In this document: positions 450 through 5,833 of the stretch, piece by piece
Position numbering within the stretch: the first letter of the stretch is position 1
How the letters are laid out: each line of letters begins with the position of its first letter
Assembly: GCA_964426185.1 (NCBI GenBank)
Contig: CAYRPF010000118.1
Coordinates: forward strand, 1 to 5,919
Direction of reading: 5' to 3'
DNA length: 5,919 nucleotides
DNA from: an uncultured archaeon
GTDB taxonomy: Archaea; Asgardarchaeota; Lokiarchaeia; Sigyniarchaeales; Promethearchaeaceae
Made by a program: the position numbers and the translations under genes
The notes under the pieces: model-generated
Databases searched by the model: none
What the model was told of the DNA's origin: nothing
Seen by the model: only the letters and a program-made list of their open reading frames with translations

Positions 450-1046
450 TTATACTCGCCAGCGCATATAAGCTGGTCCTAAGAAGCAGATACATAATGC
501 AGGAACTAAAACAAACAATCCTCCCCAGCCTTGAGTAAATACTTCCAATATTATACCTAATAAGAGCATTTTTGGTAAGCGTAATTTTCCGAGTACTACG
601 ATATCGTTTACCAAAAAGTTGTAATCTCTAGCTGCAATTTTCTTTGAAAAAGGTAATACAAAAAAGAAGATCAGTAAACCCGACAGAATCGCACCAATCA
701 TCATCCAGATTCCAGAACCAATCGCCGCATTTCCGATATTTCCTCCGATATTTCTATTCAGTGCAATTCCACCAATTAATGCTATTATACCCGCAATCAG
801 ATAAACGAGGATATTTCCTATCAACACAAGCCATGACCACTTCCCCGTAAAGACTACGTATTTTTCGATAGTATTCCAGACATTTTTGTTGGTATTCTCA
901 TAGGAAATCATACCAGGTGCATCAGCAGTATTAATTTTGGTGTTAGCATCTGCTTGGGATTCCATATCAAATCCACATTGACTGCATATGCTTTTTCCTT
1001 CTAATATTGCCCCACAATTGGGACAAAATTTCTGTTCTGTTGACAT
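450..1046 (-). CDS. Zinc-ribbon domain-containing integral membrane protein (198 aa from ATG 1046; the ORF track starts at GTG 1055)
   Basis: N-terminal FCPNCG..ICSQCG (CxxC-x9-CxxC) zinc ribbon, then a polar linker and 3-4 hydrophobic segments (WSWLVLIGNILVYLIAGIIALIGGIAL; AIGSGIWMMIGAILSGLLIFFFVLP; MLLLGIILEVF..GGLFVLVPALCICFLG). The GTG at 1055 lies within an SD-like AGTGAT just upstream of ATG 1046, which favours 1046 as the start. Confidence 0.8.
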   Translation of the reverse strand: MSTEQKFCPNCGAILEGKSICSQCGFDMESQADANTKINTADAPGMISYENTNKNVWNTIEKYVVFTGKWSWLVLIGNILVYLIAGIIALIGGIALNRNIGGNIGNAAIGSGIWMMIGAILSGLLIFFFVLPFSKKIAARDYNFLVNDIVVLGKLRLPKMLLLGIILEVFTQGWGGLFVLVPALCICFLGPAYMRWRV

Positions 1047-1118
1047 ACATATCACTTAATATAACAATATTTAGCTGTTTTTAACAGTATTTTCATACGT
1101 TAATGGTTCTAAAATGCT

Positions 1119-1646
1119 TTAATTTCTTTTAAAAGTTACCTCAATTCTCCGATAGAAAAAAAGGAGGTTATCATATTGCTGAGGTGAAATTCTTACTCCC
1201 TCTGGAAGAATTCCTGCCGGAGAGAAGGAAAATTTTTTTAGGAGCTTAATACTGGCGATATTTTCTTGTAAAACTTCCGCAAATAGAATCTGAATATTGC
1301 TATTTTCATCCCGAATTTTTTGTAAAAGAGATTCCATCAAGAGCGTGCCAATTCCTCTTCGTTGATATTCCGGATGAACTTGATAAGACAAAAGACTGAT
1401 ATGATTCAATAAATCCTCGGTTCTTGGCAAGGCATAGATATTTCCAACAAGTTGATCTTCGTATTTAGCAACTAAATAAATGGAATCGGGTTGATCATGT
1501 AAAAAATCTAGAAAATTTCGCATTTCTTCTCGAGAAATTGGTCTTTTGCGGGCCATCCAATGAGAATGTGATATTTCTTGATTATGCAATTTAATATTTT
1601 CATCAAAATCATCTGATGTGATTGGTTGTATTTTTATTTGTTCCAT
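1119..1646 (-). CDS. GNAT family N-acetyltransferase (175 aa)
   Basis: Acetyl-CoA-binding motif A VHPEYQRRGIGTLLM (R/QxxGxG), motif B AEVLQENIASIKLLKKFSF, and the typical YLVAKYEDQLVG strand. AAAGGA lies upstream of the ATG. Substrate unknown. Confidence 0.92.
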   Translation of the reverse strand: MEQIKIQPITSDDFDENIKLHNQEISHSHWMARKRPISREEMRNFLDFLHDQPDSIYLVAKYEDQLVGNIYALPRTEDLLNHISLLSYQVHPEYQRRGIGTLLMESLLQKIRDENSNIQILFAEVLQENIASIKLLKKFSFSPAGILPEGVRISPQQYDNLLFFYRRIEVTFKRN

Positions 1647-1700: not shown

Positions 1701-1922
1701 TCATGTGCCCGAGTAAAAAGATGCTTTCTTCAATCTATCGATTTCTTTGGCAAAGAGTGTACGAAATGGGAATTGAACTTTAATTTTGAATTCCAATTTC
1801 TGTTGGTTAAGTCGATTAATTAAATTTTCTGCTTCGGTTCTTGTATCAAAATGAAACTCTTCCGAACCGCCATGTGGCTTGGATAAAATTATCCCGTATT
1901 TTACATTAAAATTATTGCTCAC
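1701..1922 (-). CDS. Small hypothetical protein (73 aa, GTG start)
   Basis: Co-oriented and closely spaced with the GNAT gene, with protein-like composition. A BRE/TATA-like element sits 20 bp upstream of the GTG. No family recognised. Confidence 0.6.
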   Translation of the reverse strand: MSNNFNVKYGIILSKPHGGSEEFHFDTRTEAENLINRLNQQKLEFKIKVQFPFRTLFAKEIDRLKKASFYSGT

Positions 1923-1942
1923 AATCAGAGATTATCTCTATC

Positions 1943-1957
1943 TGTATAAAATTTTCG
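1943..1957 (-). promoter_or_regulatory. BRE-TATA promoter for the 73-aa ORF/GNAT cluster (probably leaderless)
   Basis: Minus strand reads CGAAAA-T-TTTATACA (1957->1943), matching the archaeal BRE+TATA consensus at leaderless spacing from GTG 1922. Confidence 0.55.
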
Positions 1958-1999
1958 TTATCAATGGCCTAATATTCCGATTCTGGGGGAGAACCAATC

Positions 2000-2101
2000 C
2001 ATATAATGGTATTTTTAACTGACCTCAAATTTGATATGCGTTGAAAAGATTTACGTGTTAGGCACTTGCAAAAGCTTTTTGAGCCTACCAACATCTTGAT
2101 G
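2000..2101 (+). pseudogene. Non-coding diverged copy of an internal 102-bp segment of the downstream GTPase gene
   Basis: Ungapped 94/102 identity with 2289-2390. It translates as HIMVFLTDLKFDMR*KDLRVRHLQKLFEPTNILM versus HTMVFLTDPKLDMRWKDLRVRHLQKLFEPTNILM, with TGG->TGA at 2042-2044. The offset of 289 bp puts it out of frame with the gene. Confidence 0.9.
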
Positions 2102-2105
2102 TCAT

Positions 2106-2789
2106 ATGCCTCGATATTTTTCTACTCCCAAATATGTAACGATCGATCTGTTTGGAAAGGTGGGAGTAGGAAAAACAACCATATTTAATCATTTTGCAGG
2201 GGATCGCTTGTTAAAAGATGGGGGAAATCTTTCCTATGATTATAGAATTTACTTTGCAAGATGTTGGATTTTACCACGAAGATGGGAGCATACAATGGTA
2301 TTTTTAACTGACCCTAAATTGGATATGCGCTGGAAAGATTTACGCGTTAGGCATTTGCAAAAGCTTTTTGAGCCTACCAACATCTTGATGATAGTTACAG
2401 ATAGTACACGGGAGGATGTACTTGCAGTTAGGGAATCATTTAGTATGTATCCTAAAATTAAGCGAAAACTTATCATTTTTGTAATCGCAAATCAACAAGA
2501 TCTTCCTGGACGTTTACCACTTTCTGAAATTAAAGAAATACTTCAAATGAAAGATGTAATTGGGATTAATGCCACCGATCCTGCATGTATACCCGTTTTA
2601 GAAAAATTCTTTGAAACGGCAGTGTTACGGTATTTTTCCATGTTAGCTAAAAAAGGCCAAGCAATGATGGTGTTGGATGAAGAAGAAATCGGGTTTGGTG
2701 CAAAAATAAAACAGAAAGAAAAAAAAGAAGGGAGATTCTCACATCGAATCCAACAAATTAAAGAAAAATTAGATAAAAATAGAAAATAA
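2106..2789 (+). CDS. Atypical Arf/Ras-superfamily small GTPase-like protein (227 aa) with a basic C-terminal tail
   Basis: P-loop GKVGVGKTT (aa 17-25); IVTDST (Arf-type VVDS); ANQQDLP (aa 128-134, cf. Arf ANKQDLP); G5-like INAT (154-157). The G3 position reads LTDPKL instead of DxxG. The C-terminus is Lys/Arg-rich. Confidence 0.85.
   Translation: MPRYFSTPKYVTIDLFGKVGVGKTTIFNHFAGDRLLKDGGNLSYDYRIYFARCWILPRRWEHTMVFLTDPKLDMRWKDLRVRHLQKLFEPTNILMIVTDSTREDVLAVRESFSMYPKIKRKLIIFVIANQQDLPGRLPLSEIKEILQMKDVIGINATDPACIPVLEKFFETAVLRYFSMLAKKGQAMMVLDEEEIGFGAKIKQKEKKEGRFSHRIQQIKEKLDKNRK
2289..2390 (+). repeat. Intragenic copy of the 102-bp direct repeat (GTPase codons 62-95)
   Basis: Direct repeat of 2000-2101. 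The last 36 bp (2355-2390 vs 2066-2101) are identical. Confidence 0.92.
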
Positions 2790-2821
2790 AAAAACAATCT
2801 AAATTTGATCTGTTCTTTTTT
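2788..2821. terminator. Bidirectional oligo-T terminator region between the convergent GTPase and hcp genes
   Basis: T6 on + at 2816-2821 follows the GTPase stop. A7 on + at 2788-2794 (T7 on -) follows the hcp stop. Confidence 0.45.
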
Positions 2822-4508
2822 ACTTTCCAGCAAGCATGGCTGCAATATCGCCTTGAACGGAATCAATCGGCATAATATTGAATTTCTCGACCAGTACTTT
2901 TGCAACATTTTCAGATAAGAACGCAGGAAGAGTGGGACCTAATCGAATGTTTTTCACACCCAAATAAAGTAATGCCAGCAGCACTATTACAGCTTTTTGT
3001 TCGTACCAGGCAATATCAAATGAGATAGGCAGATCGTTTATAGATTCGGTTTCAAATATTTCGGCTAACTTCAAAGCCACAACTGCTAAAGAGTAGGAGT
3101 CATTGCACTGTCCCGCATCAATTACCCGGGGAATTCCTCCGATGTCTCCCAAATCCAACTTATTATACCTATATTTAGCGCACCCAGCAGTTAAAATTAT
3201 TGTATCATTCGGTAGATTTTTCGCAACCTCGGTATAATACTGGCGACTTTTCATTCTTCCATCACATCCTGCCATTACAATAAATCGGCGTAAGGCTCCA
3301 CTTTTGATAGCATCAATTATTTTATCCGCTACCCCAAGAATTGATTCATGGGCAAAACCTGTCATCACGGTTCCGTCTTCTATTTGTGTGGGGCTTGGAA
3401 GTTTTAATGCCAGATTTATTAATTCAGAGAAGTCTTTCGGTTGATTTCCTCTCCTATCTGAGATCCGTTTGAGACCTTTAAAGCCAACTGCACCTGTGAC
3501 AAAAACCCGGTCTTTATAACTCTTTTTAGGTGGGACCAAGCAGTTTGTCGTCATCAAAATGGCACCATTGAATGATTCAAATTCTTTAGTTTGATGCCAC
3601 CATGATCCTCCATAATTTCCAACTAAATGGGGGTATTTTCTCAATTCTGGATAGCCATGTGCCGGGAGCATTTCACCATGAGTATAAATATTGATCCCCT
3701 TATCTTTTGTTTGTTCGAGTAATTCATATAAATCTCGTAAATCATGACCGCTCACCAAAATGGCTGGACCTTTTTTTACGCCAAGATTTACTTTTGTGGG
3801 TGTTGGATGCCCATAGGTGCTAGTGTTTGCCTCATCAAGCAATGCCATTCCTTTTACACCGAATTCACCCACTTTCATCACGATTCCCACCCAATCATCC
3901 ACAGATAAGGATTCATCCTGCATTTGAACAAGGGTTTTTTCTAAAAATTGATAAATTTCAGGATTTTCATATCCCAAAACCATGGCATGTTCCAAATAAG
4001 CTGCCAATCCCTTCAATCCAATAATTGCAAGATCCTTTAAAGAGCGAAGATCTACATCAAACATAGACAGCGGATCTTGCATCTTTCCCTTTAAAACTAA
4101 AGCATCTAAGTTTTCTTCAGTGATATTATCTTCCCATTCGGTCCATTGAGGGGCGTTTTCCACACCATCCAATTTTTTAGAACCGCTGGCAAGTTTTTCT
4201 CGGATTTTTTCCTTCAAAGTCTTTCGAAGTTCGATTCCTTGCTTTATCTGGTTCAAAAACCATTTATTGTCGAAGTTGGCATTCGTTATTGTGGCAAATA
4301 GCGTTTTTATAATATGATGAGATCCTGCAGTAGTTTCTAACTGCACTTTTCGAGCCAGTTCATTCCAATAAGCCATTTGCTTGCATACAAATAAGGCTAA
4401 ATAATGCAAATTTGTCGTATCAGAGGGCTTTCCACAAACGCCTCGTATGGTACATCCCTTGTTATTCAAAGCCTCTTGGCATTGATAACAAAACATTTTT
4501 TGTTCCAT
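2820..4508 (-). CDS. hcp: Hybrid cluster protein (prismane protein / hydroxylamine reductase / NO reductase), class I-type, 562 aa
   Basis: N-terminal MFCYQCQE..GCTIRGVCGK (C-x2-C-x8-C-x5-C cubane motif) and TITNANFD. Hybrid-cluster ligand motifs are all present: VSGHDL, YTHGEMLPAH, MTTNCL, MAGCDG, TAGCAKYRY, DAGQCNDSYS, AWYEQKAV. RLGPTLPAFLS is also present. Confidence 0.98.
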   Translation of the reverse strand: MEQKMFCYQCQEALNNKGCTIRGVCGKPSDTTNLHYLALFVCKQMAYWNELARKVQLETTAGSHHIIKTLFATITNANFDNKWFLNQIKQGIELRKTLKEKIREKLASGSKKLDGVENAPQWTEWEDNITEENLDALVLKGKMQDPLSMFDVDLRSLKDLAIIGLKGLAAYLEHAMVLGYENPEIYQFLEKTLVQMQDESLSVDDWVGIVMKVGEFGVKGMALLDEANTSTYGHPTPTKVNLGVKKGPAILVSGHDLRDLYELLEQTKDKGINIYTHGEMLPAHGYPELRKYPHLVGNYGGSWWHQTKEFESFNGAILMTTNCLVPPKKSYKDRVFVTGAVGFKGLKRISDRRGNQPKDFSELINLALKLPSPTQIEDGTVMTGFAHESILGVADKIIDAIKSGALRRFIVMAGCDGRMKSRQYYTEVAKNLPNDTIILTAGCAKYRYNKLDLGDIGGIPRVIDAGQCNDSYSLAVVALKLAEIFETESINDLPISFDIAWYEQKAVIVLLALLYLGVKNIRLGPTLPAFLSENVAKVLVEKFNIMPIDSVQGDIAAMLAGK

Positions 4509-4777: not shown

Positions 4778-5833
4778 CTATTTACCTAACATTTCAGCAG
4801 GAAGAGAAGAAGTTATCGCACTCTTACATTTCTCTATCCAATTGCTTATATAACTCCTCACTGGTTCTTCAATTCTTTTTGATTCAATCTTTGAAATTTC
4901 TCTCTTCGTTGGTCTTGAAGCTGAATTAATGATATTTTGGGATTTTTCTCCAGGTAGGTGAACCATGAGCAGGTTGCCGTAAAGATTAGTTTTCCATTCG
5001 ATTTTCTGGGTTTCATCGGCATTTTTCAGTTTCATCTTCACATTATACCCCTTCCTTAGCTTTTTCAGCACAAATTTACTTTGATCAGCCGATTTTAACT
5101 GAATTTGCCATTTCTTCGTATATAATCGACATTTAAACAAGTTTTCATCAAAAATTTCTGCGAATTTTACCATTTTGCTGAAAATCAAATTGTAATTATG
5201 TTCAAACATCAAATTTTCCAGCTGCTCTAAACTTTCTACTGGATCTATCATATATACTGAATAATAATCTAAATATGATTTGAGTAGTTGATTAAGAGCC
5301 CGCTGGAATCCTGCCGACTTTGATTCATTTTCTTCTTCCGCAGAAAGAACTTCTTTTGTGCTTCTGTCTACTATTTCTGCTGATTTTCCTTCATACCCGC
5401 TGATTTTAAGTTCAAATCGATTTGTAATCAAACGTGAATACCTTTTGGTCGGATGTGCCATGATTTCAGCAAAATCTTCCAAATTTCTCTTTATTATTGG
5501 TTCGCGGCTGTGCTGAATAAAACCTGCCCAATTTCTCATTTTCATATCGAAATATAGCAGTTGTAAAGATTGTTGTTTCTTTTTACGCTCTTCCAAAGGC
5601 AATCTCCATGCTTCGAGTAAGGAATCCCCTCGAATTTGCACACAATTATCGTGGGAAGCTAATCTCAAACCGGTTATTAAACTAAGGAAAAAGCCAAAAA
5701 TGATAAATCCCCATAAAATATAAGGAGAAAGGGGGGTTCGATTCATTTGCCAGTAAACTAATCCAAATATCGACCCAAAGATAACCAATTCAATCATTAG
5801 GAAAAAGGTTTTTTTGCGCTTATTCTGGGGCAT
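4778..5833 (-). CDS. Hypothetical membrane-anchored protein (351 aa; two N-terminal TM helices plus a large soluble domain)
   Basis: Long ORF with a basic N-terminus KRKK, then FFLMIELVIFGSIFGLVYW and YILWGFIIFGFFLSLITGL. The rest is hydrophilic with no motif recognised. Confidence 0.85.
   Translation of the reverse strand: MPQNKRKKTFFLMIELVIFGSIFGLVYWQMNRTPLSPYILWGFIIFGFFLSLITGLRLASHDNCVQIRGDSLLEAWRLPLEERKKKQQSLQLLYFDMKMRNWAGFIQHSREPIIKRNLEDFAEIMAHPTKRYSRLITNRFELKISGYEGKSAEIVDRSTKEVLSAEEENESKSAGFQRALNQLLKSYLDYYSVYMIDPVESLEQLENLMFEHNYNLIFSKMVKFAEIFDENLFKCRLYTKKWQIQLKSADQSKFVLKKLRKGYNVKMKLKNADETQKIEWKTNLYGNLLMVHLPGEKSQNIINSASRPTKREISKIESKRIEEPVRSYISNWIEKCKSAITSSLPAEMLGK

Follow-up and report, generated by a model that had tools for sequence, protein, structure and literature searches.

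A non-coding copy of an internal segment of a small-GTPase gene, probably serving as its core promoter, in a Lokiarchaeia-type archaeon

We analysed a window of 5919 nt, which is the entire contig C118 of a MAG consisting of 155 contigs and 92% complete. Directly before the start codon of a small-GTPase gene, this window contains a 102-nt copy (A') of a segment inside that same gene (A). A' is very likely the remnant of a partial duplication. It carries a motif that matches, in both sequence and position, the predicted promoter signal of other genes in this genome, and A' probably acts as the core promoter of the GTPase gene, which would be transcribed as a leaderless mRNA. Taken as one explanation, a duplication remnant that now serves as core promoter is the reading that we hold with moderate confidence; the order of the mutational events and the promoter activity are what we infer from the sequence. 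The features of the locus are collected in Table 1.

Table 1. Features of the window and the basis of their assignment
Feature	Coordinates	Strand	Basis or comment
Zinc-ribbon membrane protein	450-1055	-	ORF
GNAT acetyltransferase	1119-1646	-	ORF
73-aa gene, divergently transcribed, no family assigned	1701-1922	-	Conserved upstream neighbour in congener G001 and in L033/L034
Rest of the divergent intergenic region, 77 nt	1923-1999		Motif of the minus-strand neighbour at 1944-1959, 37 nt before the start of that gene
A', non-coding copy of GTPase codons 62-95	2000-2101	+	Repeat search, alignments, five assemblies
BRE/TATA-like motif in A' (A-run 2070-2073, T-run 2076-2080)	2066-2081	+	Candidate core promoter; 8.41 bits
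Spacer TCAT between A' and ATG	2102-2105	+	No Shine-Dalgarno-like sequence in the 25 nt before ATG
227-aa divergent Arf/Arl-like small GTPase (P-loop protein)	2106-2789	+	P-loop, orthologues, PDB profile match over residues 83-151; Pfam Arf just under cut-off
A, source segment inside the gene, codons 62-95, HTMVFLTDPKLDMRWKDLRVRHLQKLFEPTNILM	2289-2390	+	Orthologue alignment; most conserved stretch of the family
Identical twin of the motif inside the CDS (LQKLF codons)	2355-2370	+	Cryptic promoter-like site, predicted to predate the duplication
Hybrid-cluster (prismane) protein	2820-4508	-	ORF
351-aa protein, no family assigned	4778-5833	-	ORF

The repeat pair and the GTPase gene

In a repeat search of the window, A' and A aligned ungapped with 94 of 102 nt identical (92%) at a spacing of 289, and gapped local alignment of extended regions returned the same limits. 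No homology past these 102 nt was found at the DNA or protein level by gapped local alignment, flank shuffles, or a protein search of the genome. The 187-nt left flanks gave an alignment score of 11, compared to a shuffle mean of 11.4 +/- 1.9, with 320 of 500 shuffles reaching 11, and the protein search found an upstream counterpart for residues 62-96 only, broken by one TGA. These results reproduce the ungapped match and sharp limits described in an earlier reading of this DNA made from the letters alone (the sequence-only reading), as well as its statement that the codons outside the copied segment lack a counterpart. The eight mismatches fall at the positions listed there (A'/A: 2004 T/C, 2025 T/C, 2026 C/T, 2032 T/G, 2041 T/C, 2044 A/G, 2056 T/C, and 2065 C/T) and comprise seven transitions and one transversion; the longest identical run is 36 nt. 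As that reading also noted, A' ends at 2101, with 4 nt between it and the ATG at 2106, is out of the gene frame (offset of 106 nt), and has TGA at 2042-2044 in place of the TGG in A. In a whole-genome search, A and A' were the only two copies, and the pair was recovered in a genome self-BLAST with an E-value of 2.4e-35.

The repeat pair is genuine and no assembly artefact. The same or a near-identical protein is encoded on contigs from a JGI metagenome (3300013103), a megahit assembly in ENA (ERZ27227322), and two MAGs in NCBI, which differ from the window at 14, 16, 5, and 3 positions, respectively, and thus are not duplicates of one contig. A and A' are letter-for-letter unchanged in all five assemblies, including the window. 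The doubt voiced in the sequence-only reading, that the two copies might have been created by assembly, is thereby answered by five assemblies with distinct SNP haplotypes. An error of assembly or binning could be suspected in a genome that is a 155-contig MAG with scaffolding artefacts (55-nt overlaps flanking 100-N runs), but it is extremely improbable, given the identical structure obtained by different pipelines, the 8% divergence between the copies, and the finding that neither junction has shared sequence able to mislead an assembler.

Scaffolding artefacts of this kind were observed elsewhere in this genome (G000), where twelve exact 55-nt direct repeats at a spacing of 155 are scaffold joins in which one 55-mer flanks a stretch of 100 N on either side (for example, C73:7920-8129, C79:1517-1726, C91:4731-4940, and C27:3377-3586). 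These joins are assembly artefacts that can be mistaken for duplications.

The start of the GTPase gene was placed at 2106 because of an in-frame TGA at 2097-2099 and an MP(K/R/Q)Y N-terminus that is conserved in the orthologues. The G1 P-loop GxxxxGK[ST] is present (GKVGVGKT, residues 17-24), and G17, K18, G22, K23, T24, and T25 are invariant among 20 orthologues. In contrast, the G3 motif DxxG is absent and is replaced by D69-P70-K71-L72, which has no glycine and of which D69, P70, and K71 are invariant in the orthologues. The G4 site reads NQQD, NMQD, or NKQD compared to [NT]KxD, with N129, Q131, and D132 invariant among the 20 orthologues. A perfect P-loop is thus combined in these 20 Lokiarchaeia-type orthologues with invariant D-P-K for DxxG and with NxQD for NKxD, and judging from these motifs, the family may consist of atypical GTPases or pseudo-GTPases.

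The Pfam Arf model scored 21.6 bits with the 227-aa protein, just under its cut-off of 22.3, and a PDB search with a profile of the 20 orthologues matched Arl2/Arf only within residues 83-151 (E = 2e-4). The sequence-only reading had assigned the copied segment to beta3, G3, switch II, and beta4. This placement is broadly right, as residues 83-151 align with Arl2/Arf from alpha2-beta4 onward, but what was called G3 is DPKL and not DxxG. By the source names of its relatives, the protein is 79% identical to one of Candidatus Harpocratesius sp. and 64% identical to those of Lokiarchaeum ossiferum and Promethearchaeum syntrophicum; these names place the source organism among Lokiarchaeia-type Asgard archaea.

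Lineage restriction, origin and decay of the copy

GTPase orthologues were found in 10 of the 40 related genomes searched (56-81% identity), and at these ten orthologous loci no second match to the protein was found. Likewise, a counterpart of A' was not found in L032 (87% protein identity), in L033/L034 (79%), or at four metagenome loci (L026-L029). In total, the upstream copy was not found at 15 related loci, the closest of which has 87% protein identity, and a metagenome scan for closer relatives returned the same species or distant ones only. A' is therefore restricted to one lineage or species, which is the outcome of the comparison with orthologous loci that the sequence-only reading had suggested. 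The intergenic gap between the 73-aa gene and the GTPase gene is ~107 nt in the relatives G001 and L033/L034 versus 183 nt here.

The four genes upstream of the GTPase gene are syntenic in congener G001, whereas synteny is broken immediately downstream. Compared to the hybrid-cluster and 351-aa genes found 3' of the GTPase gene here, the 87% and 79% relatives (L032 and L033) have a DUF2085 gene at this place.

The copy derives from the gene that it precedes. A' shares 92% of its positions with its own A, compared to 79% and 75% with the G001 and G002 orthologues and at most 83% with any orthologue, and lineage-specific states are common to A' and A. Together, these results imply that A' is a self-copy that postdates the split from the relatives. 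The same identities (92% to its own A versus at most 83% to any orthologue) exclude a remnant of foreign DNA or of a replaced allele, the latter having been one of the origins entertained in the sequence-only reading. Insertion of a mobile element with duplication of its target was also rejected: what separates the copies is 187 nt of codons 1-61, a conserved part of the gene that all orthologues possess.

Since its duplication, A' has changed as non-coding DNA. At sites 2004, 2025, and 2044 the state of A matches every or nearly every orthologue, and at sites 2032 and 2065 it matches most of them; by this comparison, at least three and probably five of the eight differences arose in A'. The changes in A' hit T63, the invariant P70, and L72, and convert the invariant W76 to a stop. 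Because the stop is derived and invariant residues are lost, A' is not under coding constraint. At six of the eight differences, A' has A or T where the gene has G or C, a bias that relaxed constraint would be expected to produce in an AT-rich genome. The copies differ by 8%, compared to at most 0.3% between sampled strains, implying that A' is old relative to the present diversity of the species.

The genome self-BLAST returned 45 non-overlapping local direct-repeat pairs, and in the context listing A/A' is the only pair with one copy inside a gene and the other in the non-coding DNA that immediately precedes the start of that same gene. A genome-wide system of genes preceded by their own internal segments was rejected, as no second case occurs among the pairs listed. 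The sequence-only reading had raised the prospect of further genes preceded by such copies; among the pairs listed, no other gene start abuts an internal segment of its own gene, and the arrangement is a one-off.

Several other direct-repeat pairs in G000 are gene-end fragments located 0.85-2.9 kb from the gene (C33:1805-1985/4714-4894; C29:9583-9699/11177-11293; C121:2442-2513/3295-3366; and C53:14042-14143/15003-15104). These repeats are 72-181 nt long and 90-98% identical. One copy coincides with the 3' end of a gene, its partner is in non-coding sequence, and such pairs could represent attachment-site-like duplications around inserted DNA.

A promoter-like motif within the copy

A promoter motif was modelled from this genome. 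We took 530 ORFs with unambiguous ATG starts and used the 321 that lack a Shine-Dalgarno-like sequence; the GTPase gene of the window was absent from this training set. The 321 genes show an A-rich and then T-rich signal at -40 to -26, from which EM derived a 16-nt motif whose core is AAAA, two variable positions, and TTTT and whose modal start is at -40. Such an arrangement is typical of archaeal BRE/TATA promoters that give leaderless mRNAs. Among all 2324 ORFs, matches of at least 6.5 bits cluster at -48 to -37. The model is built on crude ORF-based start calls and describes an AT-rich, low-information pattern in a genome of 35% GC.

A' contains a strong match to this motif at the expected place. 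The 16-nt match at 2066-2081 starts exactly 40 nt before the ATG, scores 8.41 bits compared to a 90th percentile of 7.3 bits in the training set, and is the second-best plus-strand match in the window. A' occupies -106 to -5; hence the proximal promoter, if any, must sit within A'. No plus-strand motif above 3.3 bits was found in 1900-2000 and none above 2.4 bits in 1923-1999, and the last 25 nt ahead of the ATG contain no Shine-Dalgarno sequence. Among 12 orthologous regions, 9 have their best motif match within 120 nt upstream at -38 to -43 (5.4-7.8 bits), a count that overstates independence, as many of these are close kin. The spacing here is consistent with that of archaeal leaderless genes, in which 22-24 nt separate the promoter box from the gene start (PMC6028130). 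A literature search for transcription start site (TSS) maps of Asgard archaea found nothing specific.

In tests of motif position, which were post hoc in that the sequence had already been seen, the fraction of coding positions that score at least 8.41 was 4.4e-5, that of nine-position windows with such a score was 3.9e-4, and 1.3-4% of the fragment end points in this gene would place a comparable motif correctly. No mismatch occurs beyond the first 66 nt of A', and -40 to -5 is identical in the two copies (p = 0.026 with the 3' end preset). If a run of 36 nt or more free of mismatches may lie at any place, p = 0.24, so that the clustering, likewise tested post hoc, is weak.

One congener departs from the common spacing. 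In G012 (L010, C225), the motif lies at -80 versus about -40 in congeners, and AGGAG is found 7-11 nt before the ATG. From these sequence features, the GTPase locus of L010 looks like a switch from leaderless to leadered, Shine-Dalgarno-dependent expression.

The arrangement could have arisen as follows. In an ancestor, after the split from the closest sampled relatives, the GTPase gene would have undergone a local partial duplication. The simplest route would be a 289-bp tandem duplication of 2102-2390, after which the promoter, ATG, and codons 1-61 of the first unit were lost; the intact second gene copy would have had the motif at -40 from the moment of tandem duplication, and its expression could have continued. 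Alternatively, a one-step templated repair patch may have turned ~26 nt of promoter into 102 nt, which fits the lengths equally well (183 - 102 = 81 nt here versus about 107 nt in the relatives). In a break-point search, the intergenic alignments with G001 and L033 had diverged too far to choose between these routes. By either one, the original core promoter would be gone and a slowly decaying 102-nt copy would be left against the start codon. The A-run and T-run would be a by-product of QKLFE codons, that is, a cryptic promoter-like site that was moved before the ATG. Use of A' as promoter would explain why this duplication survived and was fixed. If the motif in A' is active, an internal sense TSS would also be expected near 2392-2396 from its twin at 2355-2370.

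Alternative explanations and comparison with known systems

The promoter reading has to be weighed against a neutral one, in which A' is a functionless decaying by-product, the gene is transcribed from elsewhere, and the motif at -40 is a coincidence. The twin motif at 2355-2370 in the CDS is not known to fire, and transcription could instead start from the TATA-like element at 1944-1959, which the gene would share with its divergent neighbour; acting bidirectionally, this element would give a GTPase transcript with a leader of ~120-150 nt that contains A'. Consistent with a neutral remnant, A' has acquired a stop and lost invariant residues, the feature is limited to one species, several other gene-fragment repeats adjoin genes in this genome, and the motif is AT-rich and of low information, with its position tested post hoc. 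However, the motif scores only 2.3 bits on the plus strand at 1943, the long leader would be without a Shine-Dalgarno sequence, and the orthologues appear to be leaderless with the motif at about -40. The probability of the coincidence is ~4e-4 to 4e-2, depending on the null chosen, and we regard a purely neutral remnant as a possible but unlikely explanation. The suggestion in the sequence-only reading of a simply decaying remnant is therefore right as to a duplication remnant, but incomplete as to its decay, since the 3' third of A' matches the promoter motif at the place of a promoter.

No support was found for A' being a cassette, a switch, or a regulatory RNA, the other roles that had been put forward. 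A non-expressed, diverged copy of an internal segment that adjoins its gene could serve as a silent donor cassette for conversion of switch II, or as the template repeat of a diversity-generating system. Yet the genome has one donor only, which would write a stop into the gene and destroy invariant residues; conversion would act on the best-conserved segment of the family, not on a variable one; and mosaic A/A' alleles were not seen in the five assemblies. As to a template repeat, the mismatches are not adenine-specific: read on the plus strand, A' has A at one of the eight sites, and read on the minus strand it has A at five of them. We give a donor or template role almost no credence. A diversity-generating retroelement was excluded by the unfit mismatch spectrum and the lack of a reverse transcriptase, none being found among the six larger ORFs of the window or the called genes on longer contigs. 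The direct repeats, 289 bp apart and with a run of 36 identical nt, make a loop-out physically possible, and the 289-bp deletion would remove the ATG and P-loop with codons 1-61, so that the pair could be a recombination liability or a one-way off switch that generates null subpopulations. Such an event would be irreversible and hence not phase variation, and against it stand the intact arrangement in five of five assemblies, the absence of truncated or deleted forms among the contigs and proteins searched, with no near-identical truncated protein in the protein search, and the 8% divergence, which shows long coexistence of the copies; this role is very unlikely. A compound role is about as improbable, in which A' would be both promoter and recombination arm and rare exchange would either delete the ATG and P-loop or write the stop and switch II changes into the gene, giving heritable GTPase-null subpopulations. 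The proposal of a cis-regulatory RNA likewise found no backing: no Rfam family was detected in the window, and the RNA spanning A' was predicted to fold with no more stability than shuffled sequences (z = -0.49).

Should the promoter in A' be confirmed by transcript mapping, this locus would be a clean natural case of the birth of a promoter from a gene's own coding sequence. A coding stretch that resembled BRE/TATA by chance would have been duplicated to the right distance and would have replaced the original promoter, which would illustrate the tolerance of leaderless archaeal genes towards such a replacement. The organism is related to the archaeal lineage that stands nearest to eukaryotes, where promoter architecture is barely characterised, and the analysis also provides a promoter motif, with its spacing, that can be used for this genome. 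No new kind of genetic system is revealed, and as a remnant alone A' would be ordinary genome turnover.

Silent cassettes for antigenic variation are exemplified by pilE/pilS of Neisseria and vlsE of Borrelia. A' resembles these systems, as well as diversity-generating retroelements, in being a non-expressed, diverged, partial gene copy near the gene. It differs from pilE/pilS and vlsE in being a single copy with a stop, in corresponding to an invariant core and not to a variable surface loop, and in the lack of mosaics. A closer likeness is to segmental duplications by slippage or template switching, which also leave two nearby direct copies with sharp limits, one of them non-coding with disabling changes, in one lineage. 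In contrast to such tandem duplications, the order here is A'-B-A and not a full tandem, which calls for a second deletion or a templated patch; moreover, A' is old (divergence of 8%, compared to 0.3% at most among strains), and with its 3' end it occupies exactly the place of a promoter.

With leaderless archaeal promoters of the BRE/TATA type, A' shares a purine/A-run followed by a T-run at -36 to -26 and the lack of a Shine-Dalgarno sequence, at a position that is common to the orthologues and to hundreds of genes in this genome. Unlike a classical TATA box, the T-run of A' ends in G (TTTTTG) and not in A, and the candidate element derives from coding sequence. Promoter capture at a duplication junction reportedly occurred at rnk-citT in the E. 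coli long-term evolution experiment. Here too, a local duplication would have set a transcription signal before an intact CDS, and the rearrangement was fixed; the junction lies 4 nt before the ATG, the copy was not found at 15 related loci, and a promoter-like motif is predicted within A'. Capture of the rnk-citT type brings in the existing promoter of another gene, whereas A' comes from the coding sequence of the same gene and its resemblance to a promoter would be due to chance. Thus, unlike in captures of that type, A' appears to replace the gene's own promoter without new regulatory input.
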